Source of the DNA: Rhodothermales bacterium
GTDB taxonomy: Bacteria; Bacteroidota; Rhodothermia; Rhodothermales; JAHQVL01
NCBI GenBank assembly: GCA_034439735.1
Contig: JAWXAX010000302.1
Span: forward strand, 40,338 to 104,337
Direction of reading: 5' to 3'
DNA: 64,000 bases
This document shows positions 12,446 through 62,432 of this stretch, piece after piece. Numbering within the stretch: the stretch's first letter is position 1; each line of letters starts with the position of its first letter. The position numbers and the translations under genes were made by a program. A model generated the notes under the pieces. It searched no databases. It was not told the DNA's origin and worked only from the letters and a program-made list of their open reading frames with translations.

Positions 12446-12450
12446 AGTGA

Positions 12451-13175: not shown

Positions 13176-13205
13176 GTAGAGACACAAAACATCGTGTCTC
13201 CGTAC
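13176..13205 (-). repeat. GTAGAGAC-type hairpin downstream of the MTHFS gene
   Basis: GTAGAGACAC-AAAACATC-GTGTCTCCGTAC. Stem GAGACAC/GTGTCTC. Same flank and stem design as the GAGACGC/GCGTCTC hairpins at 50050, 63590 and 63765. Confidence 0.6.
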
Positions 13206-13221
13206 AGCCCACGCGTAACGT

Positions 13222-13836: not shown

Positions 13837-14102
13837 GGTGGTAGGCGCAAAAATGAAGGCGTGGCGAGGGACGTGCGTTCCCTAACTCGTCAAAAATTCG
13901 ATGTTTGTTCAGAACGTGAAAGCGTCGGCGACGTTGGATTAGCCGTTTGTATCATCTATTTTGGCCTTTCTACGCTGTAGAGTAAACGCGCGATGTAAAC
14001 GAAGCGAAGGAAGCGAGCCATACGTTAAGCGCCAATGAATGGGCCTGGCACCTGCGAGCTCACTGATCGCACGCGCTGAATACATCACCTGGAAATCCCG
14101 GA

Positions 14103-15452
14103 ATGTTCGAAAATCTGAGCGACAAGCTGGACGTTGCGTTAAAGTCCCTCGCGGGGCAGGGGCGCATCAACGAACTCAACATCGCCGAGACGATGCGTGA
14201 GATCCGGCGTGCATTGCTCGATGCGGACGTCAATTATCAGGTGGCGCGGGAGTTTACGGACAAGGTAAAAGACCAGGTTCTCGGGAGCAAGGTGCTCAAC
14301 GCGGTCTCGCCGGGGCAGCAGCTCGTGAAGATCATCTACGATGAGCTGGTGGACCTGCTCGGGTCGGTCCAGGTAGAGATCAAGACGTCGGCCAAGCCGC
14401 CGACGGTGGTGCTGGTCGCCGGCCTCCAGGGCTCAGGAAAAACGACGTTTTGCGGTAAACTCGCCGCTTATTATAAAGCCAAAGGTTTTGCCCCCATGCT
14501 CGCCGCGGCGGACGTATACCGTCCCGCGGCTGTGGATCAGCTCAAAACCCTCGCCGCCTCCATCGACGTGCCGGTGTATGCGATCGTGGAGGACGGGGTG
14601 GTTGTCCGCGATGCCGTTCGCGTGGCCCGTGAAGCGCTGGCTGAAGCGCGTCGGACCGCGCGTAACCTGCTCATCATCGACACCGCAGGCCGCTTGCATG
14701 TGGATGAGGAGATGATGCGCGAAGTCGAGCAGATCAGGGACGCCGTTTCGCCTACCGAGATCTTGTTCGTCGTCGACAGCATGACGGGTCAGGATGCCGT
14801 CAATACGGCGCTCGAGTTTAATAAGCGGCTGAACTTCGACGGCGTCGTGCTTACGAAACTCGATGGAGACACCCGCGGCGGCGCTGCGCTCTCTATCCGC
14901 TCGGTGGTTCAGAAACCGATCAAGTTTGCCTCGACGGGTGAGAAGTTAGACGCGCTGACGCCGTTTTATCCGGATCGGATGGCGCAGCGGATTCTGGGTA
15001 TGGGGGACGTCGTCTCCTTCGTCGAGCGCGCCCAGGAGCAGTTCGATGAGAAAGAGGCCGATAAACTCCAGCGGCAGATCCGCTCGGAGGATTTTAACCT
15101 CGAGGATTTTTACGAACAGCTGCAGCGCATCAAGAGCATGGGCTCGCTGAAAGATCTGCTCGGCATGATCCCTGGAGTCGGCAAGCAGGTCCGAGACCTG
15201 GACGTGGACGACGACGCGTTTAAACACATCGAGGCCATCATCAACTCCATGACCCCCCTGGAACGGCGCAAGCCGGATCTGCTTAACGGTAACCGTCGCC
15301 GGCGCATTGCCGACGGCTGTGGCATGGAGGTCAAGGACGTCAATCAGCTCATCAAGCAGTTTCATGAGATGAAAAAGATGATGAAGACGATGTCCAAGTT
15401 GATGGGTAAAGGTAGAAATGTCGACCTCCAGGGGCTCCTGGGGGCGCGATAG
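14103..15452 (+). CDS. ffh: Signal recognition particle protein Ffh
   Basis: SRP54 N/G domains (GLQGSGKTT, DTAGR, TKLDGD) and a Met-rich M domain (MKKMMKTMSKLMGKG). Confidence 0.95.
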   Translation: MFENLSDKLDVALKSLAGQGRINELNIAETMREIRRALLDADVNYQVAREFTDKVKDQVLGSKVLNAVSPGQQLVKIIYDELVDLLGSVQVEIKTSAKPPTVVLVAGLQGSGKTTFCGKLAAYYKAKGFAPMLAAADVYRPAAVDQLKTLAASIDVPVYAIVEDGVVVRDAVRVAREALAEARRTARNLLIIDTAGRLHVDEEMMREVEQIRDAVSPTEILFVVDSMTGQDAVNTALEFNKRLNFDGVVLTKLDGDTRGGAALSIRSVVQKPIKFASTGEKLDALTPFYPDRMAQRILGMGDVVSFVERAQEQFDEKEADKLQRQIRSEDFNLEDFYEQLQRIKSMGSLKDLLGMIPGVGKQVRDLDVDDDAFKHIEAIINSMTPLERRKPDLLNGNRRRRIADGCGMEVKDVNQLIKQFHEMKKMMKTMSKLMGKGRNVDLQGLLGAR

Positions 15453-15514
15453 CCGTACGAGCACAACACGAGTTCACTTCGTAACCAAGAAGCGATACAA
15501 AGGAGAGAAGCAAG

Positions 15515-16186
15515 GTGGCAGTAAAACTCCGTCTACGCCGCATGGGGCGTAAAAAACACCCGATCTACGCCGTAGTGGCGACCGATGAGCGCAACCCCCG
15601 CGATGGTAAATACATCGAGGACCTGGGCCGCTATTATGCCGTCGATGAGCCGGTTCGTGTTGAACTTCAGCGCGATCGGATCCTCTACTGGCTCTCACAG
15701 GGCGCGCAGCCGACCGATACCGTGCGCAGCATCTTCAGCCGGCATGGCCTCATGCTGGCGGCCAACCTGCGCCGAAAGGGCAAATCCGAAGCGGAAGTCG
15801 AGGAAGCCGTCCAGGCGTTCCTGACACAGCGCGCGGACAAGCAGCCGCGTAAGCGCACGGTCGCCGACCAGCGTCGCGACGCGCTCGCCCTCGAACGCCA
15901 GGAAGCCTCCAAGCGTGAAGTCGAGAACGCAAAGGCCCGCGCCGAAGCCGAGGCGAAAGCCGAAGCCGAAGCCGATGCCGCGCGCCGAATGGCCGCTGAA
16001 GAGCGTCTGAGGCAGAAGGAAGCCGCTGCGGCCGAAGCCAAAGCCGCGCAGGAAGCAGCCAATGCGGCTCAGGCCGGCGCGGAAACGCCGGCTGAAGCAG
16101 CGCCTGCCGCCGACGCTGCCGCTGAGGCGCCCGCAGAAACGCCTGCCGCTGATGAACCCGCGGCCGGTGAGACCAACGCCAGCTGA
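15515..16186 (+). CDS. rpsP: 30S ribosomal protein S16 with long Ala/Glu/Lys-rich C-terminal extension
   Basis: GTG start. N-terminus VKLRLRRMGRKKHPIYAVVATDERNPRDGKYIEDLG is S16. The last ~140 aa are low-complexity. Confidence 0.9.
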   Translation: MAVKLRLRRMGRKKHPIYAVVATDERNPRDGKYIEDLGRYYAVDEPVRVELQRDRILYWLSQGAQPTDTVRSIFSRHGLMLAANLRRKGKSEAEVEEAVQAFLTQRADKQPRKRTVADQRRDALALERQEASKREVENAKARAEAEAKAEAEADAARRMAAEERLRQKEAAAAEAKAAQEAANAAQAGAETPAEAAPAADAAAEAPAETPAADEPAAGETNAS

Positions 16187-16206
16187 CACGCGCCAGAGGC
16201 CATCCC

Positions 16207-16746
16207 ATGTCAGCTACGGACGCGCATTCGTTACGCCGCATCGGGCGGATCTTACGCGCGCACGGCGTCCTGGGGGAGCTGAAGGTATTGCCGTCGGTTG
16301 CGGATATCGAGGGTCTGGCGACACTCCCTCGGGTCTGGATCGGCGGAGCGCCGGATCAGGCAACGGCACACGCCGTGGAGTGCGTCCGCTTTCAGCATAA
16401 CGCGAAAGGCCGGCTCGTTCTCCTGCGAGTGGCCGGAGTCGTGGGCCGCGAGGCCGCGGAGGCGATGCGTGGTCGCGAGGTATTCGCGGCGGCGGCAGAC
16501 CTACCGGTATCCGATGGCGAAGCATACGATCGCGACCTGCTGGTCGGGCTCGAAGCCTTTGCCGACGGCGCGCCCATTGGCCGTATCCACGATGTGCTGG
16601 AAATGCCCGCGCATCACGTGCTCGTGATTGCGCGGGAAGGTCGGCCCGATGCCCTCGTGCCGGCTGTGCCAGCGTTCATTGAAACGATTGATCTTGCCGC
16701 CGGCCGTCTGGTCATCCGGCCCATCGAGGGCCTGTTGGAAGACTGA
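16207..16746 (+). CDS. rimM: 16S rRNA processing protein RimM
   Basis: [17 protein letters not shown]-terminal pattern, PRC-barrel-like C-terminus, conserved rpsP-rimM-trmD-rplS order. Confidence 0.85.
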
Positions 16747-16772
16747 GGCGAGCGCATACCGGGTTCCGATCC

Positions 16773-17471
16773 GTGCGAATCGATATCGTCACCGCACTGC
16801 CGGACATCGTCCGCGGTCCGCTCGAACACAGCATCATCCAACGCGCCCGCGCTGCCGGGATCGTGTCGATTGTTGTGCACGACATACGGGACTTCACGTT
16901 CGATAAGCATCGACAAGTGGACGATTACCCGTTCGGCGGAGGCGCCGGCATGGTGCTCAAGCCGGAGCCGATCTTCGCCTGCATCGAAGCGATCCAGGCG
17001 GAGGCGGAACAGCGCGGCGAACCGGTAGACGAGGTAGTGTACCTCACGCCGGATGGCGAAGTGTTCCAGCAAGCGATAGCCAACCAGCTCTCCTTGCGGC
17101 GCCATCTGATCCTGCTCGCCGGCCACTATAAAGGCGTCGATCAGCGTGTGCGCGATGCCCTCGTTACCCGCGAGATTTCGATCGGGGACTATGTGCTGAG
17201 CGGTGGTGAGCTGCCTGCCCTCGTCCTCGTCGATGCCCTCGTTCGGCTTGTGCCGGGGGTGCTCGGCGATGCGTCGTCGGCGCTAACCGATTCGCACCAG
17301 GACGGCCTCCTTGCGCCACCCGTCTACACCCGCCCCGCTTTGTATCGCGGGCTCGAGGTGCCGGACGTGTTGATGTCGGGAGATCACCGGGCTATCGATG
17401 CCTGGCGGGACGAACAGAGCCTCGCGCGGACGCGCGAGCGCCGGCCCGACATGCTCGACGCGGCGGATTGA
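16773..17471 (+). CDS. trmD: tRNA (guanine37-N1)-methyltransferase
   Basis: [20 protein letters not shown] and [30 protein letters not shown] motifs. Confidence 0.9.
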
Positions 17472-17522
17472 GATCAATCGTAACGAAGTGACAAGTGAGG
17501 GTCGAAGTTATTCGCTCTCGGC

Positions 17523-17593
17523 TTCCCCGCGAAAGCGGGGATCCATGCAACCAGTCGGTCTTGCTTGGATCCCCAATCGAGTTGGGGATGACA
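17523..17593 (+). repeat. Two-hairpin element, copy C (trmD-rplS spacer)
   Basis: TCCCCGC-GAAA-GCGGGGA, then TCCATGCAACCAGTCGGTCTTGCTTGG, then ATCCCCA-ATCGAGT-TGGGGAT followed by GAC. Second stem differs from copies A/B by paired substitutions. Confidence 0.75.
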
Positions 17594-17668
17594 ACTACCT
17601 GTGGGACCCAGTTTTTGCTGATTCCCGCGTACATAAAAGAGTACTAAATCGATAAGCGGAGGTGGCCC

Positions 17669-18031
17669 ATGGCTAAGGACCTGATTGGGATCATAGAAGC
17701 GACCCAGTTTCGCGACGATGTCGTCGCTTTTACGCCCGGAGATACGGTCAATGTGCATGTGCGCGTCGTCGAAGGCGACAAGGAGCGTATCCAGCAGTAT
17801 CAGGGTGTCGTGATCGGCATCCAGAACAGCGGCTCCAACCGCACGTTCACCGTCCGCAAGATTTCGAACGGCGTTGGCGTCGAGCGTATCTTCCCGATCT
17901 TCTCCCCGAAGGTTGCGAAGGTGGAAGTCGTTCGTCGCGGTAGCGTCCGTCGCGCGAAGTTGTATTACCTGCGCAACCTGCGTGGTAAGGCGGCCCGCAT
18001 CAAAGAGAAGATGTACGATCGCGCCCACTGA
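17669..18031 (+). CDS. rplS: 50S ribosomal protein L19
   Basis: [37 protein letters not shown] and [10 protein letters not shown] are typical L19. Confidence 0.95.
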
Positions 18032-18050
18032 TCCCCTCGATCGATCCACG

Positions 18051-18872
18051 ATGCGCATTGCCATCTGGGACGAGCCGGCACTCGATGTATTTGCGGTGGC
18101 GATGGAGCAAAGCGGACGCTTTGCTCCATCGGCTATCCGCAGGGGCACCCGCGCCCAGTGCCGAAATTGGATCGTCCTCGGTGAAGTGGATGTGGCTCTC
18201 GTGCCCACCCTGACGTTGTTCCGGGAGCAGGCGCTTTTCGATGCACTGCCGGCGGTGGCCATCTCGACGTGGGAATCCACTCTGGTGGAGATCGTGCTCA
18301 ACCGTCCGCTCGGCGAAGGCGTACGCACGGTCAGCTTCGATCCTCGCTACGCCCAGGAAGTGCTGCTAACGCAGATCGTGCTAAAAGAGCATTACCAGAC
18401 CGTCCCGGTGTTTAGACCGGTCGATGCGGAGTCGGTTAACCAGTTGCTCGAAGCGTCGACGGATGCCGCCATCCTGGTTAATGCCGCCTCCGACGCTGGC
18501 GCGGCGGCTACTTACCGGATGGACCTCGGTCGGGAGTGGTTCGAGTTGACGAACTACCCGATGGTATGGGGAATCTTCGTCACCCCTCGCGGGGCCGCGA
18601 ACAGCGATCACGTGCGCCGGCTCACGACGTATGCCGGCATGGCCGAGCAACTCACCGAGTCGTGGCTCGCCGATCGCGTGCTGGACGAACGTCGCGCGGC
18701 CTTCTACCGATCCCACATCCGGTACCGGTTGGACGACCTCGCCGTCGCCAGCTTCACAGCCCTCCAGGATTACCTCTACTTCTACCTGGCCACCGACGAC
18801 ATCGCCCCGGTTTCGTTCTACCAGGTCCCGGAGTCCGAAGCCGACGATTCCGACGACATCCCTCTGTTGTGA
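18051..18872 (+). CDS. MqnA/MqnD-family (PF02621-like) menaquinone-via-futalosine protein, probably chorismate dehydratase
   Basis: ATG 18051 inside the track ORF. Family-like blocks GEVDVALVPTLTLF, VSFDPRYAQEVLLTQIVLKEHY, YRMDLGREWFELTNYPMVWGIFV. Assignment by eye only. Confidence 0.5.
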   Translation: MRIAIWDEPALDVFAVAMEQSGRFAPSAIRRGTRAQCRNWIVLGEVDVALVPTLTLFREQALFDALPAVAISTWESTLVEIVLNRPLGEGVRTVSFDPRYAQEVLLTQIVLKEHYQTVPVFRPVDAESVNQLLEASTDAAILVNAASDAGAAATYRMDLGREWFELTNYPMVWGIFVTPRGAANSDHVRRLTTYAGMAEQLTESWLADRVLDERRAAFYRSHIRYRLDDLAVASFTALQDYLYFYLATDDIAPVSFYQVPESEADDSDDIPLL

Positions 18873-18879
18873 TTGCGCC

Positions 18880-19344
18880 ATGAGTGAGGAGATTAAAATC
18901 GTTGCTTCCAACCGCAAGGCGCGCCACGAATTCAGCATCGAGGAGTCGCTCGAAGCCGGCATGGTGCTCCATGGGACCGAAGTGAAGTCCCTCCGCGAAG
19001 GCAAAGTCAACATGTCGGACGCGTTCTGCATCGTCCAGGGCGGCGAGATGATGCTTTTGAACTGCCATATTTCGCCGTTTAAACACGGCGGGCACTTCAA
19101 CCACGAGGCCGTCCATCCGCGCAAATTACTCCTCCACCGCAAGGAGATCGAGAAGTGGCGCGAGGCGATCGAGCAGAAAGGGTTTACGATCGTGCCGCTC
19201 AAGATCTACTTCAAAGCCGGCCGCGCGAAGATCGAGATCGGCCTCGCAAAGGGTAAAAAGCTTTTTGACAAGCGTTCCGACATCGCGGACCGTGAATCGA
19301 AGCGCCGGCTCGAACGCGTCATGCGAAGTGGTAAAGACGAGTAG
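18880..19344 (+). CDS. smpB: SsrA-binding protein SmpB
   Basis: ATG 18880. IVASNRKARHEFSIEESLEAGMVLHGTEVKSLREGKVN and a basic C-terminal tail. Confidence 0.9.
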   Translation: MSEEIKIVASNRKARHEFSIEESLEAGMVLHGTEVKSLREGKVNMSDAFCIVQGGEMMLLNCHISPFKHGGHFNHEAVHPRKLLLHRKEIEKWREAIEQKGFTIVPLKIYFKAGRAKIEIGLAKGKKLFDKRSDIADRESKRRLERVMRSGKDE

Positions 19345-19390
19345 CGCCGATATTCACGCCTTCAGTCGCTGTTATTAGCCTCTAATATCC

Positions 19391-20611
19391 ATGTTTTTAC
19401 CCGTCGACGAACAGCTTGCGCACATCCGCCGGGGCGTCCAGGAAATCCTCCCCGAAGCGGCCCTCCGCGAGAAACTTCAGCGCTCGTACGATACCGGTAA
19501 ACCCCTCATCGTTAAACTCGGGTGCGACCCGAGCCGGCCCGACCTCCACCTCGGCCACTCCGTCGTCCTCCGTAAGCTCCGCCAGTTTCAGGATCTCGGC
19601 CATCAGGCCATCCTCATCGTGGGCGACTTCACGGGCATGATCGGCGACCCGAGCGGGAAGTCGAAGACCCGCCCGCCCCTCTCCCTCGAAGAGACCCGCC
19701 TCAACGGGCAGTCGTACTACGAACAGGCCTCGAAAATCCTCGACGGCGGCAAAGCGCGTATCCTGTACAACTCCGAGTGGCTGGGACCGATGAGCTTCCG
19801 CGACGTGATCCAGCTCGCCGGCAAATACACCGTCGCTCGGATGCTCGAACGAGACGAATTCGAGCGGCGCTACAAGGGCGGCGAGCCGATCGGGGTGCAC
19901 GAATTCCTGTACCCGCTCGCCCAGGCGCAGGACTCGGTGGCCATCCAATCCGACATCGAACTCGGCGGCACCGACCAGAAATTCAACCTGCTCGTTGGTC
20001 GCGACATCCAGATGGCGAACGGGATGCCGGCGCAAGTCTGCATCACGCTACCGCTTCTCGAAGGCACGGATGGGATCGAGAAAATGTCGAAATCGCTCGA
20101 CAACTACATCGGCATCTCCGAACCGCCCGAGCAGATGTACGGGAAAACGCTGTCCATCCCCGATACGCTCATCTACCGGTATTTCGAACTCGCCACGGAT
20201 CTGTCCACGGACGAGCTGCCGGCGCTCAAGGCCTACGCCGAGCGCGACCCCCGGAATGCCAAACACGACCTCGCGCTGCGCCTCGTCCAGATGTACCATG
20301 GTGCCGAAGCCGCCCGCCAGGCCCGCGCTCATTTCGAAAAGACCATCATCGGCGGGGGAGTGCCGGACGAGATCGAGTCGTTTACGCCCGAGGCGGAAAC
20401 CGGCTCTTCGATCAATCTCGTGAAGCTGATGGCACAGGCCGGCCTCGCGTCTTCTAACGGCGAAGCCCGCCGGCTCGTGCAGCAACAGGCCGTCTCCATC
20501 GACGGCGAACGCGTCGACGACCCGCAACTCGAGATCGACCTCGCCGTCCGCGCTCCGTTTGTGGTGAAAGTGGGCAAACGCCGCTTCGTTCGGATTATGT
20601 GGAAGGGCTAG
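19391..20611 (+). CDS. tyrS: Tyrosine--tRNA ligase
   Basis: Class I motifs HLGH and KMSKS, tyrosyl-type GDFTGMIGDPSGK, S4-like C-terminal domain. Confidence 0.9.
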   Translation: MFLPVDEQLAHIRRGVQEILPEAALREKLQRSYDTGKPLIVKLGCDPSRPDLHLGHSVVLRKLRQFQDLGHQAILIVGDFTGMIGDPSGKSKTRPPLSLEETRLNGQSYYEQASKILDGGKARILYNSEWLGPMSFRDVIQLAGKYTVARMLERDEFERRYKGGEPIGVHEFLYPLAQAQDSVAIQSDIELGGTDQKFNLLVGRDIQMANGMPAQVCITLPLLEGTDGIEKMSKSLDNYIGISEPPEQMYGKTLSIPDTLIYRYFELATDLSTDELPALKAYAERDPRNAKHDLALRLVQMYHGAEAARQARAHFEKTIIGGGVPDEIESFTPEAETGSSINLVKLMAQAGLASSNGEARRLVQQQAVSIDGERVDDPQLEIDLAVRAPFVVKVGKRRFVRIMWKG

Positions 20612-20690
20612 CTTCACCAGTCAGACGAGCACCTGAGGCCAATCGTACTCGATCCACGTCCATCGGATGACGCCGTCCTTCAGGTGTTAA

Positions 20691-20756
20691 TTATTTAGCA
20701 CTAGTGCTTGACAGGCGCCCGTCCGTCCGTTATCTTTCTGCTAAATATTTAGCACG
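20691..20756 (+). promoter_or_regulatory. Sigma70-like promoter overlapped by dyad operators upstream of the blaI-like gene
   Basis: TTGACA (20708-20713), 17 nt, TATCTT (20731-20736). Perfect 12-bp palindrome AGCACTAGTGCT (20697-20708) abuts the -35. Perfect 16-bp palindrome TGCTAAATATTTAGCA (20739-20754) sits just after the -10. 10-bp direct repeat TATTTAGCAC at 20692 and 20746. Confidence 0.6.
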
Positions 20757-20805
20757 CGTAACCCGGTGGAGCCGGGGGACGTACGGACACACCAGGAAGG
20801 TACGC

Positions 20806-21192
20806 ATGACCACGCCCCAGCACGAACACCTCAGCCGCCGCGAACGGCAAATCATGGATGTGATCTATCAAAAGGGAAAGGCGACGGCCGCCGAAGTGAT
20901 GGATCAGATCCCGGACGCCCCCAGCTACTCTGCCGTGCGTGCGCTGATGCGCATCCTGGTCGAAAAGGGCCACCTGTCGTACGCCCTATCGGGGAATCGG
21001 TACATCTACAAGCCGACCGTGTCGCGGCAGACCGCCAAGCACAACGCGCTACAACACGTGTTGTCGACATTCTTCGAGGGATCCGTTTCGCAGGCGATGG
21101 TGGCGTTGTTGGATCTGACGGACGAGTTGCCGGAGGATGAACTGGAGCGCCTGTCGGTGTTGATCGAAAAAGCCAAAAACGAAGGAAAATGA
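20806..21192 (+). CDS. BlaI/MecI/CopY-family transcriptional repressor
   Basis: ATG 20806 with AGGAAGG 6 nt upstream. LSRRERQIMDVIYQKGKATAAEVMDQIP winged-helix pattern. ATGA overlap with the M56 gene. Confidence 0.85.
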   Translation: MTTPQHEHLSRRERQIMDVIYQKGKATAAEVMDQIPDAPSYSAVRALMRILVEKGHLSYALSGNRYIYKPTVSRQTAKHNALQHVLSTFFEGSVSQAMVALLDLTDELPEDELERLSVLIEKAKNEGK

Positions 21193-23861
21193 CCATGGAC
21201 AACCTGCTCTTCTCGCCGGCCTTCACCCGTGAGGCCTTCGTCGTGCTTTTCGACTACGCACTCAAGGGCGTGATCATTCTTTTGTTCGCCAACCTGCTCG
21301 TCTACCTGCTTCGGCCGGCCTCCGCGGCGATCCTGCATGCGATCTGGACCGTAGCGATGGTGCTGCTGATCCTGGTGCCGATCGCGCCGCGACTCGTGCC
21401 GGGTCTGGACCTGGCGATCCTCGACCCGAGGGCCCTGCCGGGGGTGAGTGGCGCCACGGGATTGGCTGGTGAAAATGCGCCCGAGGATGCGGTAGTTGCC
21501 TACTGGCCCTCGCAAGGCGACTCATATGGGGTATTGAACCGGAATGTGCAGGAGCAGGCTGCACTGGAAGAATCCATGGCCGCGGTGAGGGACAAACAAG
21601 GCTCGGGTGACGCATACATCGTCCGTTCGCCTGACGCCGGCTACCGGATCGAGCCGGCCGCGCCCATTGCTCCTTTGCTTCGAACGCAGACGGCCATGCC
21701 TGTTCTGGACGCTGTGTTGTTGTTTGGGATGACGGCGGGATGGTCGGACTGGATGCTGCTCGTCTGGCTGGGCGGCGTGGTGTTTCTGATAGGATGGATG
21801 ATCTCGGGCGTCGTGGGGCTGTTCTGGCTGCGCCAGCGGTCGACTCATCTGATGGGGGAGGACTGGCAGGATCTCATCGATGAAATCTCCGAACGATATG
21901 CGTTGCGTCGGCCAGTAGCCCTCATGACGAGTGGCCGCATCGCGATGCCGATGACGTGGGGGGTGTGGCGTCCGGTGGTGATGTTGCCCGTCGACGCGGA
22001 GGACTGGCCGGCGGAGCGGCGGCGCTCCGTGCTCCTACACGAAGTGGCCCACATCGCGCGCTGGGATTACCTGACCCAGAGCCTCGCCTATGCCGTGTGC
22101 GCCGTAAACTGGTTCAACCCGCTGGTGTGGCGCGCCGCCGGCCAGATGCGACTCGAACAGGAAAAGGCGTGTGACGACCGGGTGTTGTCCCATGGCATGA
22201 AGGCGACCGCGTACGCCTCGCACCTGATGGACCTCGCCCGGACCGTGCGCTCCGCGTTTGTATCGCCATCCGCTGCGATGTCGATGGCGCGTCCGTCTCA
22301 GCTTGAAGGCCGGCTGATCGCCATCCTGGACGATCGGCACGACCGGCGGACCCCCTCGTGGCGCCGGCTTGTGGGGACGGCGGCGGCATCTTTCGTGCTC
22401 ATTCTACCGCTTGCGGCGATGCAGGTCTGGCGCCCAACGGCAGAGACCGTTTCCGCGAAACCGGCCCGTTTCAGCATGCTCGCGCCGGCGCCCGAGTATG
22501 AAAAGATCGCGGAGGACGCTTCCCTTGCCGCGTTGGCAGAACTCGAGGCCGTACATCTCAACCTGGAGGCGTTGGAGATTGCGAACCAGGAGCTGTACTT
22601 CACGCTGGATATCTCCACGGACACCACCGATGAGCAGCGAAAAGCCGCGCGCCGTAAGGCGATTGTCGCGCTACGCAGCGCGCTGGACGACGAAAACGAG
22701 GCTATCCGGCGCGACGCCGTGATCGCGCTGTATCAGATCGGCGGGGCCGATGCCGTCGATGCCTTTGTTGAGGTCGTCCGCAACGACCCGAGTGCGGACG
22801 TACGCCGGCAGGCCGTCATGGCGCTTAGTCGGGCCAGGGGCGAAACCGCGGAGCAGGGTCTGATCGCCGCGTTGTCCGACGCCGACCGGGATGTCCGGCG
22901 CGACGCGCTGATCGCGCTGAGCAGCCGGGAGGTGACCGAAGCGACGCCGGCATTTGAGCAGGCGTTAAAGGATGAGGACGCCATGATCCGCGCGACGGCC
23001 GTACGGGCCATGGCCGCCCATCCGGCGGAAGGGACCGTCGATGCGCTGGCGGATGTGCTCGCCAACGATGCCTCGCGCGACGTCCGTATCGCGGCGGTGC
23101 AGGGGCTCGGGATGATGCGCGATATCCGCGCGGTGGACGCGCTTTCCGCCGCACTGGAGGATGAGGATGTGGATGTGCGCCGGCTGGCAGCCCAGGCGCT
23201 CAGCCAGCTCAACTATGGGGGGGATGAGCAGGTTCGGCGTACGGTGGGTCGGGCCTGGGGCGGCGTCCTGGCGCCCGGTCAGATTCGGAGTGGGGCAGGT
23301 CCGGGGACGATTTTTTCATCGGCGGAGGCGCCGGCCGTCTGGGGGTATAGCCGGGGCTTGAACGACAGCGCGCGGGTGATGGCGTATTCGGATGATCTGG
23401 CGCGTGTTGGATCGCAGGCACGGGACAATGAGCATATTCAGTTGTTGAATGAGAAGGCATTATGGGAGAACGAACGCAAGCGGGAGGCCATCGAACAAGA
23501 AATGGAAGCATTGCGTGGATTCATAGAGCGCAGTCAGACGGAGGGCGGGGGAGAACAGGATAGTCGCGAACTTATGAAACGCCTGGAGGCGCTGCAGATT
23601 GAACGGGATCTTTCGGATTCTGCACTTGAACACCGACTCCGAATATCTCGATGGCCGCAAGCCGGCGAGACCTTCACTGCAGCCCCCGGTGCTTCGCAAG
23701 AGGAATTGAAGGAAGCACGGATCAGCGAGATGATCCGGTTCATCGAAGAGCAGCCGTCGGGCCCTCGGTGCAAGGAGTATGTTAAGCTGCTCCAGGACAT
23801 GAAGGACAGTAACCCGCGCGCGAAGATCGCCGTGGAGACCCTCAGCTGCGAGAAAGAATGA
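21189..23861 (+). CDS. BlaR1-like M56 membrane metallopeptidase with C-terminal HEAT-repeat and coiled-coil region
   Basis: M56 zinc motif LLHEVAHIARWD after several TM helices. The C-terminal half has at least five DxDVRRxAxxAL HEAT/PBS-lyase-like repeats. No penicillin-binding transpeptidase-like sensor recognisable. Confidence 0.8.
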   Translation: MTMDNLLFSPAFTREAFVVLFDYALKGVIILLFANLLVYLLRPASAAILHAIWTVAMVLLILVPIAPRLVPGLDLAILDPRALPGVSGATGLAGENAPEDAVVAYWPSQGDSYGVLNRNVQEQAALEESMAAVRDKQGSGDAYIVRSPDAGYRIEPAAPIAPLLRTQTAMPVLDAVLLFGMTAGWSDWMLLVWLGGVVFLIGWMISGVVGLFWLRQRSTHLMGEDWQDLIDEISERYALRRPVALMTSGRIAMPMTWGVWRPVVMLPVDAEDWPAERRRSVLLHEVAHIARWDYLTQSLAYAVCAVNWFNPLVWRAAGQMRLEQEKACDDRVLSHGMKATAYASHLMDLARTVRSAFVSPSAAMSMARPSQLEGRLIAILDDRHDRRTPSWRRLVGTAAASFVLILPLAAMQVWRPTAETVSAKPARFSMLAPAPEYEKIAEDASLAALAELEAVHLNLEALEIANQELYFTLDISTDTTDEQRKAARRKAIVALRSALDDENEAIRRDAVIALYQIGGADAVDAFVEVVRNDPSADVRRQAVMALSRARGETAEQGLIAALSDADRDVRRDALIALSSREVTEATPAFEQALKDEDAMIRATAVRAMAAHPAEGTVDALADVLANDASRDVRIAAVQGLGMMRDIRAVDALSAALEDEDVDVRRLAAQALSQLNYGGDEQVRRTVGRAWGGVLAPGQIRSGAGPGTIFSSAEAPAVWGYSRGLNDSARVMAYSDDLARVGSQARDNEHIQLLNEKALWENERKREAIEQEMEALRGFIERSQTEGGGEQDSRELMKRLEALQIERDLSDSALEHRLRISRWPQAGETFTAAPGASQEELKEARISEMIRFIEEQPSGPRCKEYVKLLQDMKDSNPRAKIAVETLSCEKE

Positions 23862-24207
23862 CGTCGTAGTACGCGAGGGCGGCCGGCGTCGCGACGAGGC
23901 GGGTGCCGTTGAGATCGACTTCGAAGAGGGAGGCCTGGCGGGTTTGCCGGGCCTTCCATGTTAACATTCGCTCCACGACAACCTGGACGGCGCCGTCATT
24001 GGAGCGTTCCGCCAGCGCCGGCCCGTCGAGCCCCAGCTCGTCCTGCATGAACACGAGCCAGCTGCCGTCGGACAGGACGGCGCGCACATGACCGTCCTGC
24101 ACATACAGCTGGCGGATGGCGCGGGCCATCACAGGATAGATGTGATGATGCAGCCGGGCTGCCGGCACGGGCCGGCCGCGGGCTTGCAGCGAAGGAAGGC
24201 GAGGCAT
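23842..24207 (-). CDS. Hypothetical protein (last gene of the envelope operon)
   Basis: 121-aa ORF starting 14 nt after the receiver-gene stop on the same strand. No motif recognised. Its 3-prime end overlaps the convergent blaR1-like gene by 20 nt. Confidence 0.4.
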   Translation of the reverse strand: MPRLPSLQARGRPVPAARLHHHIYPVMARAIRQLYVQDGHVRAVLSDGSWLVFMQDELGLDGPALAERSNDGAVQVVVERMLTWKARQTRQASLFEVDLNGTRLVATPAALAYYDVILSRS

Positions 24208-24220
24208 GAGGACACGGGAG

Positions 24221-24604
24221 TCACGCGGCGAGGAGTTGGGTAATGGTTTCGAGTAGCTGTTTCTGGGTGAAAGGTTTGCTCACATAGCCGTCGAACCCCA
24301 TGTTGAGGAACCGGTTACGATCTCCGGGCATGGCGTAGGCAGTAAGCGCGATGATCGGAATGGATGCGTAATGACCCTTCTGGCGGATCATGTTGAGCAG
24401 ATCGATGCCTGTACGCTCTTCGCCGAGGTGAATATCAACCAGGAGCAAGTCAAACGTATGCTGCGTTGTCAATTGCAGCGCCTCATCGATTTTGCACGCG
24501 ATGTCGATTTTGTATGAAGCCTGCAGAAAATACCGCAACAGGATCTGTGTGTCGGCATTGTCTTCGACCACCAGAATATGGGTAGCTGCCGGCTTTATAC
24601 TCAT
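24221..24604 (-). CDS. Single-domain CheY-like response regulator receiver
   Basis: ILVVEDNADTQILL, phospho-acceptor context FDLLLVDIHL, conserved ALTAY and K in GFDGYVSKPF. No output domain. Confidence 0.85.
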   Translation of the reverse strand: MSIKPAATHILVVEDNADTQILLRYFLQASYKIDIACKIDEALQLTTQHTFDLLLVDIHLGEERTGIDLLNMIRQKGHYASIPIIALTAYAMPGDRNRFLNMGFDGYVSKPFTQKQLLETITQLLAA

Positions 24605-24668
24605 CGTTCGCTCTGGGCCTCATCTATGCCTCAGCTGCGGGCGAAGGCAAAAGTAGATAGTGATAGGA

Positions 24669-26750
24669 CTATGAATCGTGCTTCCAGCGTAGCTGCATGC
24701 GCACCGTGCGGAACCGAGGGCCCTCGAACAGATCCGGCCCGCTGCCGGCCCGACGATCCACCGGGTACGACGCACGCTCGAACTTGACTTCAAACGTCAA
24801 GGCAGGGCCTGCCCGGTAGGACATCAGAATATAAAACCGATCGCCATTCCCCGCATACTGTGCAACGATAAAGCGTGAATATACATCGTCCTCATAGGCA
24901 AAAGCCGTCGCGTCCGCACCTGTGGATGCGAACGAGGCAAACCGGGTGGTGAGGCGAAGCCACGTCGCCGGCCTCCAGGTAATGTCGCTATACAGCAGGA
25001 CCCCGCGCTGGCGCTTGCCAGGCCTGTCCGCCAGGACCCAGTCCGCCCGCATACGAAGGAGCAACGCGGGGCTATGCGTGTAGCTGGCGTGGAGGCGGAA
25101 GGTGCGTCTCCGTGTGGCATATAACCCATCGACCACGCGACCGGCTGCATCCACATACATGCCGCCGGTTTCAGTCTGTTGTTGGCGGTATTGGAGGTAG
25201 CCGCCGATGTACGGCGCCGGCTCGACATTGAGGCGGATACTGGCTTCACGGCCCTGACCGGGGAGGGGGAGGCCGGTGCGTGGCCACGGGTGCCCGAAAC
25301 GGTCGATATACCCGGCCATAGACCACCGCCGCGACGGGGTGATGCGTATCGCGAGGTAGACGCCCTCCTCGTTCTGAGGGATGGACCCCGCGGCGCGAAA
25401 GGCATTGCCATACAATGGGGCGAACGCCGGCTGGAAGCGCCGCGCCACGAACAGCGCTTCGAGGCGCGGATCGGGCACGATCTGGCCTCCGACAATCAGC
25501 CCATCGCCACCTCCGGCCGTGCGGCCATACTCGGCGAACAGGTGGGCGGATCGGGAGCCATACCTCGCGAAGGCGCTGGAGGCGGACTGACGCCTGCCCC
25601 GGAAGTCGAAGGCCTCATAGAGGGCGTCGCCAGCAGCGATGGGCATGTCGAACTGGCCGAGGACATGCACGATCCCGACGCTCCACGAACGGGCGGCGGC
25701 AAGCAGGCGGAACCCGGCCGTATTCGAACGCAGAACGCCGCGCCGGGCGCGTTCGGTGGCCGTCCTGTGGAGGCCGGTCCGGTTGATGGCCCGTACCTCG
25801 GCCAGTGGGCCCGTATCGGTCAGGACGGTGTCGATCGAGGCGGCGAGTGCGCGTCGGGAAGCAAATACCAGGAGTTGGGTCCCACGTAGCGGAGCCACTT
25901 CCACGGCCGCGCCACGGAAGAAGGCGCTTTCGCCGGCACTACCGTACGGGCTGAGCCCGCTGCCCGAAACAAGCGGATCGAGGGTAGGCGCGGCGCCGGC
26001 GATCGCGCGATATGGCGCCCCGAGGAGCAATCCGTGCCCGGCCTGCGCCAGGTAATCCCCCACGACCAGGCGACGAAGCCAGCGGCGGCCGGACCACGAA
26101 ATGCTGCCAGCAACGTGATCCATCCCCAGGACTCCCCGGTTGGGCTCCCAGCTCAGTGCCTCGCCGGCGTCTTTCTCCATTGCAAACCGAACCGAGGCGC
26201 CGCCGCGATCGAGGCGGAGGCGCGTATACGCCGCCAGCGGCGACCCCGAAAAAGCCGGCCCGATGGAATCGCCGGGATCGGAACGGAAGCCGCTGCGGAG
26301 GTCGAGGTCGCGGCTGAACCGTTGCAGGATTTCGATGCGCGTGCGGGGCGGGCTCCTGTCAGCTCCTGGTGTCTCCGGGTCAGTGAAAGCCACGAAAGGG
26401 GCCAGCCGGCGGGCGGTATCGGCATCGAAGCCGGGGAGTCCCGCCAGAGCGTCGAGGGACGCGAGAGCAGGGGATAGCGAGAGTCGCGCGGTGAGCGCCG
26501 CTTTTTGTATGGCGCTCAGGTAGGGCAGGCGGTCGACGTCGCGCACGGCGGCGGCATCCAGTAAAAGGGGCTGTTCGAGAAGCGTCTGCCAGAAGTGGAG
26601 GAGAGCTTCCGCATCCGATTCGTCCGTCGGGAGGGATTCCAGCAGGTCGTCCCATCCGGCGAATAACGACTCGGGCGTCTGTGCCCTGGCCGACGTTGCG
26701 GACATTCCGCAGAGCAGGATCAGGCAGGCAACAAGTAGTGACGAAGGCAT
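24669..26750 (-). CDS. Helix-hairpin-helix (ComEA-like) domain protein fused to a large predicted outer-membrane beta-barrel-like region
   Basis: Signal peptide. Two HhH-like segments (VRDVDRLPYLSAIQKAALTARL; LDALAGLPGFDADTARRLAPFV). The remaining ~550 aa have an alternating Tyr/Arg/Gly-rich strand-like pattern. Confidence 0.6.
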   Translation of the reverse strand: MPSSLLVACLILLCGMSATSARAQTPESLFAGWDDLLESLPTDESDAEALLHFWQTLLEQPLLLDAAAVRDVDRLPYLSAIQKAALTARLSLSPALASLDALAGLPGFDADTARRLAPFVAFTDPETPGADRSPPRTRIEILQRFSRDLDLRSGFRSDPGDSIGPAFSGSPLAAYTRLRLDRGGASVRFAMEKDAGEALSWEPNRGVLGMDHVAGSISWSGRRWLRRLVVGDYLAQAGHGLLLGAPYRAIAGAAPTLDPLVSGSGLSPYGSAGESAFFRGAAVEVAPLRGTQLLVFASRRALAASIDTVLTDTGPLAEVRAINRTGLHRTATERARRGVLRSNTAGFRLLAAARSWSVGIVHVLGQFDMPIAAGDALYEAFDFRGRRQSASSAFARYGSRSAHLFAEYGRTAGGGDGLIVGGQIVPDPRLEALFVARRFQPAFAPLYGNAFRAAGSIPQNEEGVYLAIRITPSRRWSMAGYIDRFGHPWPRTGLPLPGQGREASIRLNVEPAPYIGGYLQYRQQQTETGGMYVDAAGRVVDGLYATRRRTFRLHASYTHSPALLLRMRADWVLADRPGKRQRGVLLYSDITWRPATWLRLTTRFASFASTGADATAFAYEDDVYSRFIVAQYAGNGDRFYILMSYRAGPALTFEVKFERASYPVDRRAGSGPDLFEGPRFRTVRMQLRWKHDS

Positions 26751-26804
26751 GGTACGGGCGGCCGGAGGAAGGGGGCTCTACCCGTACTAGACAGTTTTTG
26801 GAGA

Positions 26805-27074
26805 TCAGGCGTACCGTCTGTCGCGCATATTTTTTGCGAGATAAAAGGCGAGGGCTCCGAAAAACGAGACGAACCAGACGACGAAGGTCGCGCCGAAGAG
26901 GAATCCCGGCCGCCCCGATGGAAGGGCGAGCAGCACCTCGAATCGGTGCGCGTACCAGGCGCCGATGGCGTAAAACAGCCAGTAGAGCGACATCAAGGCG
27001 GCGAAGGCGCCGGCTTTACGAGAGATCGCGTTGGATGTGGGCGTCATAAGCGAGGCCAGGAGGCGGAGGGTCAT
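26805..27074 (-). CDS. Small integral membrane protein, unknown function
   Basis: 89-aa ORF with three hydrophobic helices, lying between two same-strand envelope genes. Confidence 0.5.
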   Translation of the reverse strand: MTLRLLASLMTPTSNAISRKAGAFAALMSLYWLFYAIGAWYAHRFEVLLALPSGRPGFLFGATFVVWFVSFFGALAFYLAKNMRDRRYA

Positions 27075-27182
27075 GGGAGCGGGGGCGAGTGGGAGCGGAA
27101 CCGGTTACAAGAAACGAAACACGCGGGCAAGGACGGGGTCGGGCGCACGCAATCCACACTCGCCTTTGGCGCGGCTTATATG

Positions 27183-28031
27183 CTACAATGCGCCACGTCC
27201 ATGGACGTATATGGCCACGGCCGGCGTCCACCCCAGCGCATAGTGCCGTTCGGCGGTGGCTTCGGCGTGAATCCACGTGGTTCGGACGGCCACGCCCGCC
27301 GATAGCCGCCATGGTTCCCCGGTCGCGCCGGCGCGCAGCGCCAGCGCCCGCACAGGACGCCACTCGAGGCCGGCATGGAGCGACGTCGACGCGCGGCCGC
27401 TCCGTCGGAGGGCGAGGAGGAGTGCGGTCTCGGGTGTCGGCTGGTACAGCGCGCCCAGGGCAAACCGCCGGGACAGGGGCTCGCCCGCAGCCCATCGGGG
27501 GCCATTGACGTTCTCCGCCGCCGCGCCCAGGCGGAGCGTGGGGACGACATCCACCTGCCAACCGGCGGAGAGTCCAATGGCCGTGGCGTTGCCGTAGTCC
27601 TCGATCGTAACCCGGTGCAGGGCGATACGGACGCCCATGGCGATGGGGCGATGGGTGCCGGGGAACAGGGGTCGCGCCACGCCGGCCAGCCAGCTGGATT
27701 CGCGGTAGGCCGCGTCGCCGAAACTGGCGGCGCCGGCCGCGACGACCGTCCGCCCAAGCGGCACCGCGACACGCGCGGCGCCTTCGCGTAGCTCGGGAAG
27801 ACCAAACCCCTCCGCGGCAAAGAAGCCCGCCGTCGCCGAGCGAATGGCCGCCCAGGACGCCGGGTTGGCGATCCCCCAGAGGTCGCCGCCGAGAGCCGGC
27901 GTGGCCCCGCCCAGAGCGATGGCGGCCGCGCCTTCACGCGCCGGTTGGGCGCCGGCGGCCCGCATGGGAAGGAGCAGAAGAAGGGCGATCACGCCGCGCA
28001 GTGCGGCGGAAGCTGGAGGCGAAGTGTGCAT
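27183..28031 (-). CDS. Putative outer-membrane beta-barrel, PorV/PorQ-like
   Basis: Signal peptide. AAAIALGGATPALGGDLWGIANPASWAAI resembles the N-terminal GG...NPA motif of PorV/PorQ/FadL-like barrels. Alternating strand pattern. Weak, by eye. Confidence 0.45.
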   Translation of the reverse strand: MHTSPPASAALRGVIALLLLLPMRAAGAQPAREGAAAIALGGATPALGGDLWGIANPASWAAIRSATAGFFAAEGFGLPELREGAARVAVPLGRTVVAAGAASFGDAAYRESSWLAGVARPLFPGTHRPIAMGVRIALHRVTIEDYGNATAIGLSAGWQVDVVPTLRLGAAAENVNGPRWAAGEPLSRRFALGALYQPTPETALLLALRRSGRASTSLHAGLEWRPVRALALRAGATGEPWRLSAGVAVRTTWIHAEATAERHYALGWTPAVAIYVHGRGAL

Positions 28032-28188
28032 CGGATACGATAGAGGCTGATGGACCGTTTCTCCTACTAGACGTATGTGCGTGCTCCCGCATACCGTCCG
28101 ACACAGCCAGTGCCCTCGCCGGCTGGAAACAGCACCCGCACTCGCTCGTAACAGCCTCGATTCGGAACCGTCAGTCTATCCTAACCGC

Positions 28189-29130
28189 ATGCCGAACCCA
28201 ACCCGACGCACGTCTCGCTTTTCTTCTCGCCTTATCCGCTTCCTGCTTCTGGGGTTGGGGGTTATGGTAGGGGCGCCGGCTACCGCGCCGACGGCCCACG
28301 CACAGGAATTTAACTGCCAGGTCACGGTCTCCATCGCCCAACTCACGGGCTCCGAGTTTACGTTCTTGCAGGAGCTTGGCGAACAGATCGAGCTCTATAT
28401 GAACGAGCGGTCTTTCACGCAGGACCGGTACCTGGATGTCGAGCGCATCGACTGCCTCATGCAGGTGATCTTCGAGGAAGCGGTCACCCTCACCAGCTTT
28501 CAGGCCCGGATCGTGTTATCCAGCCGGCGACCCATTTACGGTGTGCCGCAGGTCTCGACGGTCCTTCAAATCAGCGATACCGGCTGGCAGTTTAACTACG
28601 CCCAGGGGTCGCCGCTGGTATTCGATCTCGAGAAGTTCGATCCCCTGACGTCGGTGCTCAACTTCTACGCCTACATCATGCTGGGCTACGACTACGACAC
28701 ATTTGCGGAATTTGGAGGCTCCGCCCACTTCGAGCGGGCGCGGCGCATCGCGGCGCTGGCGGAGTCCCAGAACGCGCTCGGTTGGGTCGATCTGGGTGAC
28801 AACCGGGGCCGGAAAGATCTGATCGAGCAGGTGCTGGATCCCCGCTTTAAGCCACTCCGGAAGGTCTATTTCGACTACCACTACGCCGGCCTTGACGCCT
28901 TCGTCTCGGAGAATGAGGCGGCGCGAGGCAGTATTCTCGCGGCGATTGAGAGCCTGGACGCTCTTTATGATGAGATGTCGCGATCGTATGTGTTCGACAT
29001 CTTTTTCTCAAGCAAAGCCGAGGAGATCGCCGCGGTGTTTGACGACTCTCCCCTGAGTTCACAGGCGTACGATGTGCTCCGCCGTGTCGACCCCGCGAAC
29101 CTGTCGAAATACGATAAGCTGGTGAACTGA
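28189..29130 (+). CDS. DUF4835 family protein (T9SS PorD-like)
   Basis: ATG 28189. After the signal peptide, AQEFNCQVTVSIAQLTGSEFTFLQELGEQIELYMNERSFT ... ERIDCLMQVIF follows the DUF4835 pattern over the full length. Confidence 0.75.
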   Translation: MPNPTRRTSRFSSRLIRFLLLGLGVMVGAPATAPTAHAQEFNCQVTVSIAQLTGSEFTFLQELGEQIELYMNERSFTQDRYLDVERIDCLMQVIFEEAVTLTSFQARIVLSSRRPIYGVPQVSTVLQISDTGWQFNYAQGSPLVFDLEKFDPLTSVLNFYAYIMLGYDYDTFAEFGGSAHFERARRIAALAESQNALGWVDLGDNRGRKDLIEQVLDPRFKPLRKVYFDYHYAGLDAFVSENEAARGSILAAIESLDALYDEMSRSYVFDIFFSSKAEEIAAVFDDSPLSSQAYDVLRRVDPANLSKYDKLVN

Positions 29131-29250
29131 GGTAGTTGCAGGTTGGCAAGTTGGCATGTTGCAGGTTACGACCGATCGGAAACCTATCTACCTGCAACCC
29201 GCCAACCCGCCAACCTGCAACCTGCCAACCTGCAACCTGCCAACCATTCC
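29131..29250 (+). repeat. GCAGGTT/AACCTGC word hairpin, copy 2
   Basis: Starts right after the porD-like TGA: GGTAGTTGCAGGTTGGCAAGTTGGCATGTTGCAGGTTA. Spacer, then CCTGCAACCCGCCAACCCGCCAACCTGCAACCTGCCAACCTGCAACCTGCCAACC. Ends 3 nt before the convergent tRNA-Leu. Confidence 0.8.
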
Positions 29251-29253
29251 ATG

Positions 29254-62256: not shown

Positions 62257-62432
62257 GAGAGGTTGAGGGTTGGCAGGTTACAGGTTGCAGGTTTGCAGGT
62301 TTGCAGGTTTGCAGGTTTGCAGGTTGCAGGTTTGCAGGTTGGCAGGTTACAGGTTGGTTTTATCGTCAGGGCAAGGGCAGCGCCTTCATCTTGAGAAACC
62401 TGCCAACTTGTAACCTGCCAACCTGCAACCTA
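62257..62432 (-). repeat. GCAGGTT/AACCTGC word hairpin, copy 3 (MFP-RND spacer), with a tandem 7/8-mer run
   Basis: Fills the whole 173-nt spacer. Sense strand: TAG GTTGCAGGTTGGCAGGTTACAAGTTGGCAGGTTT, then ~40-nt spacer, then AACCAACCTGTAACCTGCCAACCTGCAAACCTGCAACCTGCAAACCTGCAAACCTGCAAACCTGCAAACCTGCAACCTGTAACCTGCCAACC, ending a few nt before the RND ATG. Confidence 0.85.

Follow-up and report, generated by a model that had tools for sequence, protein, structure and literature searches.

Palindromic heptamer arrays between genes in a Rhodothermales bacterium, probably a tolerated product of slippage

Three spacers in a 64,000-nucleotide stretch of a Rhodothermales bacterium genome (assembly GCA_034439735.1, contig JAWXAX010000302.1, positions 40,338 to 104,337 of the forward strand; this whole stretch is called the window below) are filled by inverted arrays of short words, in which tandem GCAGGTT-type words (the 5' or G arm) and tandem AACCTGC-type words (the 3' or C arm) enclose a central sequence. 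The arms hold 4-13 tandem words, the centres (21, 35 and 41 nt) are unrelated in sequence, and the elements are 109, 122 and 176 nt long; we number them copies 1 to 3 by position, the largest, copy 3, lying between the genes of an MFP adaptor and an RND pump. Judged by its sequence, the element is best filed as a palindromic heptamer/octamer array among the intergenic heptamer repeats of the STRR/TAACTGA/GGGAATC class. The reading that we favour, and to which we lean without regarding it as secured, is that of a simple sequence repeat (SSR) driven by slippage, tolerated by its host and filtered in shape by the neighbouring genes.

The words are strongly enriched, AACCTGC occurring 35 times in the window versus 5.57 +/- 2.35 times in shuffled sequence (maximum 12; none of 100 shuffles reaches 35), and their clusters are confined to exactly three places. 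Three copies with a common GCAGGTT/AACCTGC vocabulary and structure had been proposed in an earlier reading made from the letters alone (the sequence-only reading), and this stands: besides our direct reading, Tandem Repeats Finder (TRF) and an inverted-repeat finder recovered the arrays and arms independently, the former as period 7/8 arrays at 867-899, 938-969, 29134-29161, 29190-29245, 62268-62348 and 62397-62431. The abutment on stop codons, also claimed there, is equally real, since all three elements begin at a stop codon or no more than 8 nt from one, and in two of the three (copies 1 and 3) at most 3 nt separate the far end from the following start codon. Upstream of copy 1 lies an rmlB-like dehydratase gene (stop TAG 973-975) and downstream an rmlA-like nucleotidyltransferase gene, whose recorded 250-aa product uses the same TTG start that the element abuts; copy 2 follows the stop of a DUF4835 gene (TGA 29128-29130) and stops 1-2 nt short of a convergent tRNA-Leu gene on the minus strand (29253-29335), whose 3' end it faces. 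At copy 3, direct reading shows that the MFP adaptor stop, TAG 62430-62432, is itself the beginning of the first of five GCAGGTT-type words, and the last C word stands 3 nt upstream of the RND start ATG (62254-62256). Split word by word, the left boundaries of the three copies read TAG followed by GTTGCAGGTT, TAG followed by GTAGTTGCAGGTT and TGA followed by GGTAGTTGCAGGTT; the 14-nt left boundary GGTAGTTGCAGGTT is identical in copies 1 and 2, and at the right boundary AACCTGCCAACC is contained in all three. The first GCAGGTT is preceded by GGTAGTT in copies 1 and 2 and by ATAGGTT in copy 3, GTAG being possibly a degenerate word. In the C arm of copy 3, 11 of the 13 words are canonical AACCTG(C/T) and two are degenerate (AACCCTC and AACCTCTC), while the 8-mer AACCTGCA occurs five times, four of them contiguous.

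All three copies are non-coding, and each occupies the gap from a stop codon to the gene that follows. In (GCAGGTT)n arrays and their complement all six frames are free of stop codons, and because of this openness mechanical finders of open reading frames (ORFs) run straight through them (e.g., ORFs 574..921 and 29136..339), which can distort gene calls.

The RND, MFP and second RND proteins have exact matches in a Rhodothermales metagenome-assembled genome (MAG; NCBI MDZ4702262-4) and in JGI mat metagenomes, and the 173-nt MFP-RND spacer is identical across three independent JGI assemblies (L001-L003). The sequence of copy 3 is no assembly artefact, because these three assemblies agree and a related organism has a variant of it. 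On the practical side, heptamer arrays fragment short-read assemblies: two short-read Logan assemblies (L004/L005) break inside the C arm of copy 3 (at position 1), and the Logan contig L277 ends at another array of the window, of TCGCTAA words (window ~87). When orthologues are collected by MFP (identities quoted for this series are those of MFP), one operon junction offers a natural series from an empty 47-nt spacer through a 109-nt to a 173-nt hairpin (Table 1). The 90% relative keeps the TAG-embedded first word (GATAGGTTGCAAGTTGGCAGGTTAC) and, in part, the centre. Expansion by slippage, as suggested in the sequence-only reading, gains support from this relative, whose spacer measures 109 instead of 173 nt and whose element holds 4 instead of 11 canonical C words; the comparison of repeat number that had been recommended there thus gave a clear difference between relatives, but none between three samples of the same population. 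A metagenome contig search with the RND protein yielded only relatives at or below 53% identity, useless for comparing spacers. At the other operon, the rmlB-rmlA spacer measures 109 nt with the hairpin in the host and 54 nt without it in a relative at 85% rmlB identity (from the sample of L269), the closest one found for this locus, which has its rmlB stop, TAA, at the matching codon and keeps the TTG start region; the alignment of the filled with the empty spacer is not that of a simple insertion. To judge by these comparisons, the elements are young, being gained or lost within 10-15% protein divergence and changing by whole words, and their absence from orthologous spacers of relatives means that they are dispensable for the operons.

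The layout of the arms follows a rule that extends well beyond this genome. When one genome per species was searched for GCAGGTT three times in a row, at least 120 loci came up; the matches listed come from Bacteroidota, Chloroflexota, Acidobacteriota, Verrucomicrobiota, Armatimonadota, Cyanobacteria, Actinomycetota and others, two other Rhodothermales MAGs included, and most arrays among these listed loci are not covered by long ORFs. In 20 of 20 further two-armed elements the GCAGGTT arm is 5' and the AACCTGC arm 3' (p 2e-6; 23 of 23 with the window), and the reverse layout, AACCTGC arm first, was never seen among the 23. Eight of the 23 bridge the stop and the start of co-directional ORFs, as in another Rhodothermales MAG (L031), where TGA-GGTTACAGGTT...AACCTGTAACTTTCC-ATG leads from an ABC permease-like gene to the next gene. 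Relative to long ORFs that are coding-like by composition, our heuristic for gene boundaries in these genomes, the one-armed arrays among the loci listed are GCAGGTT-type in 24 cases versus AACCTGC-type in 10 within 25 nt past a stop, in the sense of the ORF (p 0.024), and AACCTGC-type in 40 versus GCAGGTT-type in 12 within 45 nt before a start (p 1.3e-4); most AACCTGC-type arrays upstream of starts terminate 4-19 nt before the start codon. The stop and start biases are one strand-symmetric rule, namely that the G-rich strand runs 5'->3' away from the adjoining gene end, and the replication strand cannot explain it, because post-stop and pre-start arrays on the same coding strand point in opposite directions. 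The bias in orientation and towards stop codons anticipated by the sequence-only reading is therefore present in other genomes as a polarity relative to genes, but this polarity is strand-symmetric and does not prove a dependence on the direction of transcription. Nor was the statement that the three copies share an orientation relative to transcription an independent observation: a GCAGGTT-first inverted repeat reads alike on both strands, and a common orientation consequently says nothing about the direction in which it is transcribed.

It is worth adding that the word itself does not seem privileged. Four permuted heptamers, matched in composition, free of stops and searched like GCAGGTT as threefold arrays in viral contigs, gave 9, 18, 11 and 21 stretches versus 17 for GCAGGTT, and we rejected the idea of GCAGGTT as a special universal word since the permuted heptamers are as frequent there; the breadth over phyla is probably not special to it either. 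Two-armed arrays amounted to 1 of 20 viral loci for GCAGGTT and 1 of 63 over the four controls, numbers too small to speak to the generality of hairpins. The word-bearing viral contigs from the same mat samples (L126, L127, L139) belong to a 50%-GC organism, carry a single three-word array and are uninformative.

Table 1. Coordinates of the three elements, of the orthologous MFP-RND spacers and of other repeats in the host genome
Feature	Position or source	Strand	Description
Copy 1, element	864-972	minus (sense)	109 nt; between rmlB-like and rmlA-like genes
Copy 1, 5' arm	933..972	minus	GTAGTT GCAGGTT ACAGGTT TTCAGGTT GCAGGTT; directly past TAG 973-975
Copy 1, centre	898..932	minus	35 nt; no sequence kinship with centres of copies 2 and 3
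Copy 1, 3' arm	864..897	minus	AACTTGCC AACCTGA AACCTGCC AACCAAT; directly before TTG start 861-863
Copy 2, element	29131-29252	plus	122 nt; between DUF4835 gene and convergent tRNA-Leu
Copy 2, 5' arm	29131..29168	plus	GGTAGTT GCAGGTT GGCAAGTT GGCATGTT GCAGGTT; directly past TGA 29128-29130
Copy 2, centre	29169..29189	plus	21 nt
Copy 2, 3' arm	29190..29252	plus	7 AACC(T/C)GC-type words
Copy 3, element	62257-62432	minus (sense)	176 nt including stop; spacer 173 nt
Copy 3, 5' arm	62397..62432	minus	TAGGTT GCAGGTT GGCAGGTT ACAAGTT GGCAGGTT; sequence reading and inverted-repeat finder
Copy 3, centre (loop)	62356..62396	minus	41 nt, non-repetitive; partial conservation in 90% relative
Copy 3, 3' arm	62257..62355	minus	13 AACCTGC-type words, 7- and 8-mers; TRF and word-by-word split
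MFP-RND spacer, host genome	window, L001-L003		173 nt; hairpin, 11 canonical C words
MFP-RND spacer, 90% relative	L269		109 nt; same element, 4 canonical C words; predicted fold -41.2 kcal/mol, z -4.4
MFP-RND spacer, 80% relative	L271 (Rhodothermales GCA_041391505.1)		99 nt; no words; z -1.3
MFP-RND spacer, 76% relative	L274		47 nt; no words, no structure; z +0.6
TCGCTAA x3.9	86-113		intergenic simple repeat
TTTTCC(C)	10814-10844		intergenic simple repeat
TTTTCAC x6.6	12399-12444		intergenic simple repeat
14-mer x3	31641-31683		18 nt past TGA stop
12-mer GGCAGACACTGC x14.5	34497-34670		apparently spacer before LuxR-type response-regulator gene
13-mer CGACGCGATGSGG ~x10.5	63615-63751	minus (sense)	spacer 63590-63790, TonB-dependent receptor stop to MFP start
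AAAATGA x3.4; ATCGCTA in 48-nt higher-order repeat x3.8	L276 1086-1335

How might slippage and tolerance produce such a shape? Words would be gained and lost in 7-8-nt steps through replication slippage, and arrays would spread over non-coding spacers until the flanking stop and start codons are reached. The strand that faces each gene would be set by what that gene tolerates, selection being in our view the cause of the polarity. The two kinds of word offer a rationale: AACCUGC repeats contain no AUG, GUG, UUG or stop in any frame and do not pair with themselves, and for these reasons would be tolerated just upstream of start codons, whereas GCAGGUU repeats present AGG and then UUG at Shine-Dalgarno-like spacing and pair with themselves via G.U, so that words of this kind, with their AGG plus UUG/GUU, would end up after stop codons. 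Beside a start codon an array may survive only in the AACCUGC orientation, and inverted copies could then be added only at its free, gene-distal end, which would give a hairpin with the G arm first. Once both arms are present, the hairpin of the transcript would loop out the insert and bring stop and start together at the base of the stem. We regard this hairpin as mainly a tolerated by-product, whose possible side effects include a barrier to 3' exonucleases, a substrate for RNase III and a gating of the downstream ribosome-binding region.

Several observations weigh against this explanation. The same 7-mer vocabulary stands at three loci in 64 kb, and a common vocabulary together with the identical 14-nt boundary cannot come from independent slippage, so that a step of copying or dispersal is needed in addition. 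Repeat number shows no polymorphism among the three samples of one population. The cross-genome polarity was measured against heuristic gene boundaries and in bacterial genomes, and the control heptamers were analysed in viral contigs only. Finally, the polarity and the exact abutment on stop and start codons could equally reflect positive selection for a function of the RNA.

The last point leads to a selected cis-acting RNA hairpin, acting as an intercistronic stabiliser or partial terminator, as an RNase III processing site or as a device for translational coupling, which we consider unlikely while ranking it ahead of the other alternatives. According to this proposal, the terminating ribosome melts the base of the stem and thereby frees initiation downstream, and the number of words tunes the adaptor:pump or rmlB:rmlA ratio. 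The predicted structures are certainly very stable, and the folding check suggested by the sequence-only reading came out in its favour for two copies: relative to dinucleotide shuffles, the copy 3 region folds at -71 kcal/mol (z -6.1) and that of copy 2 at -58.8 kcal/mol (z -6.2), with a marginal result for copy 1 (-47.6 kcal/mol, z -2.3). In these folds the base of the stem includes the stop codon and must for that reason be opened by a terminating ribosome; the start codon follows the base at a distance of 3 nt (copy 3) or ~7-10 nt (copy 1). If pairing is barred in 28 nt around the MFP stop of copy 3, the mean unpaired probability of RND positions -20..+5 rises from 0.45 to 0.77, as the coupling model would have it, but the same calculation has no effect for copy 1 (0.59 vs 0.54). 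The proposal also draws on the 8 two-armed elements that run from stop to start, on a polarity rule that holds over phyla, and on the length of the stems, those above 20 bp fitting RNase III substrates. The malE-malF REP (repetitive extragenic palindromic sequence), which the sequence-only reading invoked as an analogue, is a stabiliser of mRNA 3' ends; the analogy survives as an idea of how the element might work, there being no discrete REP unit here.

Against the proposal speak, besides the dispensability implied by the empty spacers of near relatives, the mismatches. In 24 hairpins, the mismatches comprise 25 transitions that leave G.U in sense RNA and 40 that leave it in antisense RNA, a pattern with no sign of selection for pairing of the sense RNA. 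The earlier argument for an oriented, RNA-level element is circular when the repeat is a palindrome. As to termination, no U-tract follows the hairpin at any of the three copies (3' flanks CCAACCCTCAACCTCTCATG, CCAACCAATTTG and CCAACCATTCCATG), so that despite the hairpin the element is not a canonical intrinsic (Rho-independent) terminator; a scan of 62000-63900 found no terminator-like site in the copy 3 spacer, its single call being at 63356-63370 on the plus strand. No Rfam family covers the elements: in a search of the whole window with Rfam 15, tRNA-Leu alone passes the gathering score, and when the cut-off was relaxed, copies 3 and 2 matched nothing but eukaryotic miRNA-precursor models, in effect generic long hairpins, at 16-35 bits versus thresholds of 45-168.

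Three features of the folds may be recorded here. Taken as exact elements, the antisense RNAs fold more strongly than the sense RNAs (-86.5 vs -67.0 kcal/mol for copy 3, -66.2 vs -56.4 for copy 2, -42.6 vs -37.5 for copy 1), because GCAGGUU words can pair among themselves via G.U and AACCUGC words cannot. At copy 3, the degenerate pair AACCCTC AACCTCTC (62257-62275) is complementary to the final MFP codons GGTGGAGGTGA (62433-62452), and the predicted stem consequently reaches into coding sequence; in the 90% relative this complementarity of the RND-proximal words is missing. Copy 2, read on the minus strand, that of tRNA-Leu, forms a predicted near-uninterrupted stem of ~40 bp (-66 kcal/mol, 8 G.U) that starts a few nucleotides past the 3' end of the tRNA, the A.C mismatches of the plus strand becoming G.U; such a stem could serve as a tRNA-Leu trailer or processing structure.

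A bolder version of the RNA proposal is that these arrays belong to a widespread, unrecognised class of self-expanding "adjustable hairpins" of fixed polarity, with a G/U-rich arm past the stop and a C/A-rich, start-free arm ahead of the start, which bridge the stop and start of adjacent cistrons and whose word number, changed by slippage, is a heritable rheostat, ranging over at least Rhodothermales, Bacteroidota, Chloroflexota, Acidobacteriota, Armatimonadota, Actinomycetota and Cyanobacteria. We hold this to be improbable; if true, such hairpins would tune translational coupling or the intercistronic processing of mRNA, here the ratio of RND efflux adaptor to pump.

We are similarly doubtful of a non-autonomous mobile element, similar to a REPIN, a BIME (bacterial interspersed mosaic element) or a MITE (miniature inverted-repeat transposable element), whose arms would be recognised by a transposase (e.g., RAYT) and later modified by slippage. 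Such an origin would account for dispersed copies with the same termini, GGT(AG)TTGCAGGTT on the left and AACCTGCCAACC on the right, for the GTAG at the left end of copies 1 and 2, for the extragenic, REP-typical position directly past stop codons, and for presence or absence at orthologous sites. It fits poorly with the lack of a constant unit length (109-176 nt), with centres unrelated between copies and with arms made of tandem words instead of one discrete, imperfect palindrome. We saw no target-site duplication, the rml spacers fail to align as filled and empty sites of one insertion, and no transposase turned up among the ORFs of the window, which were looked at without a systematic screen. 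With neither a common internal sequence nor a modal length, nor a clean insertion with duplication at rml, the element is no MITE, and 4-13 tandem words per arm set it apart from the discrete REP/BIME/REPIN unit of 20-40 nt and constant length. Least probable is an array read directionally at the DNA level by a protein that binds 7-bp words, with the arms converging on a dyad. The protein might be nucleoid-associated or regulatory, or else an enzyme, for example of restriction-modification, ACCTGC being a type IIS site. The strand-symmetric polarity has the words pointing to the centre as a dyad would, and with a period of 7-8 bp the sites would lie on different faces of the helix. Against this, no candidate for such a protein is known, close relatives differ in vocabulary and several vocabularies coexist, which is hard to fit with one cognate protein, and arrays avoid coding sequence alone.

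Three resemblances of the words to known sequences were set aside. AACCUGC also occurs in 16S rRNA, in the loop and 3' stem of helix 45 (GGGGAACCUGCGG), which we take to be coincidence; the chance that any 7-mer matches a 1.5-kb rRNA on either strand is ~19%, and the match is not extended by the bases that flank the AACCTGC words. ACCTGC is the BspMI/BfuAI site, ACCTGC and CGTCTC both being type IIS sites, a likeness for which we found no support and which is presumably fortuitous, as is presumably the identity of GGTTACA arrays with the fission-yeast telomere unit.

The preferred reading, a slippage-driven repeat tolerated between genes, also has to be seen beside the other repeats of this lineage (Table 1). 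Over the ~72 kb of host-genome sequence covered (the window and an adjoining 8 kb, L276), several further vocabularies appear, and the genome has an unusual wealth of intergenic SSRs, with ~9 arrays in 64 kb. Every unit of the 12-mer GGCAGACACTGC is a small palindrome (GCAG-ACA-CTGC), and the sole ORF over 34497-34670, encoding low-complexity CLPQ repeats, looks spurious. The 13-mer array, immediately upstream of the MFP-RND operon, is flanked on both sides by one 21-24-nt palindrome, AGAGACGCAATACATTGCGTCTC, and differs from the GCAGGTT element in vocabulary and architecture. A perfect 15-bp inverted repeat at 18100-18131, CGATGGAGCAAAGCG-ga-CGCTTTGCTCCATCG, has nothing in common with the word families. 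In the 80% relative, the orthologous spacer between TatD and a histidine kinase (L271 1138-1764) holds GAAATCG, TGACCAA, CCAATGA and CCAGTGA together with a 29-mer repeated four times; TGACCAA reads on its other strand as TTGGTCA, the STRR2 word of cyanobacteria. With multiple vocabularies in the host and in a relative, the GCAGGTT hairpins appear as one dialect of a fast-evolving repeat habit of the lineage.

Heptamer repeats in intergenic DNA have been on record since 1990, and many bacteria carry a statistical excess of them; to our knowledge, they have no accepted function or mechanism of dispersal. The polarity rule, seen over about 120 loci in many phyla, and the spacer series at the MFP-RND junction provide handles on whether such repeats are neutral weeds or tunable RNA devices, and the rule together with the bridging from stop through hairpin to start over phyla is the part most worth following up; a regulatory interpretation is no more than a possibility. 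The elements share with this class of SSR their 7-nt head-to-tail arrays with occasional 8-mers, their place in non-coding spacers, a unit number that differs among close relatives, with the arrays missing in somewhat more distant ones, and the occurrence of several vocabularies in one genome. The STRR (short tandemly repeated repetitive) heptamers of heterocystous cyanobacteria, reportedly described by Mazel et al. in 1990 (cited in PMC4692102), comprise several vocabularies in tandem, non-coding arrays that are not known to have an established function. Our elements resemble them in having several heptamer vocabularies per genome in such arrays and differ in phylum, in words, and in the palindromic layout with its anchoring on stop and start codons, which is not known to be part of the STRR description.

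The nearest parallel is the TAACTGA family (MacGregor 2015, PMC4679880), heptamers repeated directly between genes in Beggiatoaceae, Cyanobacteria and Bacteroidetes, of which ~170 sets, one indirect repeat among them, were recorded with function unknown (PMC4679880). Like TAACTGA, the GCAGGTT words are tandem, intergenic and 7 nt long, have one preferred orientation and stand few nucleotides upstream of starts; they too are scattered over the phylogeny, lacking in orthologous spacers of close relatives, changed in 7-nt indel steps, prone to end contigs and mixed with other heptamers (PMC4679880). Unlike TAACTGA, which contains stop codons, AACCTGC has none, and whereas TAACTGA repeats are nearly all direct, all three GCAGGTT copies are paired inverted arrays abutting an upstream stop. 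The GGGAATC or GGGGA(T/C)T heptamers of Xanthomonas and Nostoc, studied as G-quadruplex formers (Rehm et al., PMC4692102), are similar in forming many intergenic SSRs per genome with strong length variation at the same site between strains, and some of their pairs are inverted repeats capable of forming stem-loops (PMC4692102); GCAGGTT, unlike these words rich in G-tracts, has no G-tract, and its dominant predicted structure is a hairpin. The REP, BIME and REPIN sequences, built on a discrete imperfect palindrome of 20-40 nt and constant length that is mobilised by RAYT (PMC2817692, PMC3116915, PMC8266576), have in common with our elements an extragenic position, often directly past stops and within operons, as well as inverted arms, a long hairpin and multiple copies, but the GCAGGTT arms are variable tandem 7/8-mers whose centres are unrelated between copies. 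What is new here is thus best filed as a word, a host lineage (Rhodothermales) and a palindromic habit within the known class of heptamer repeats.

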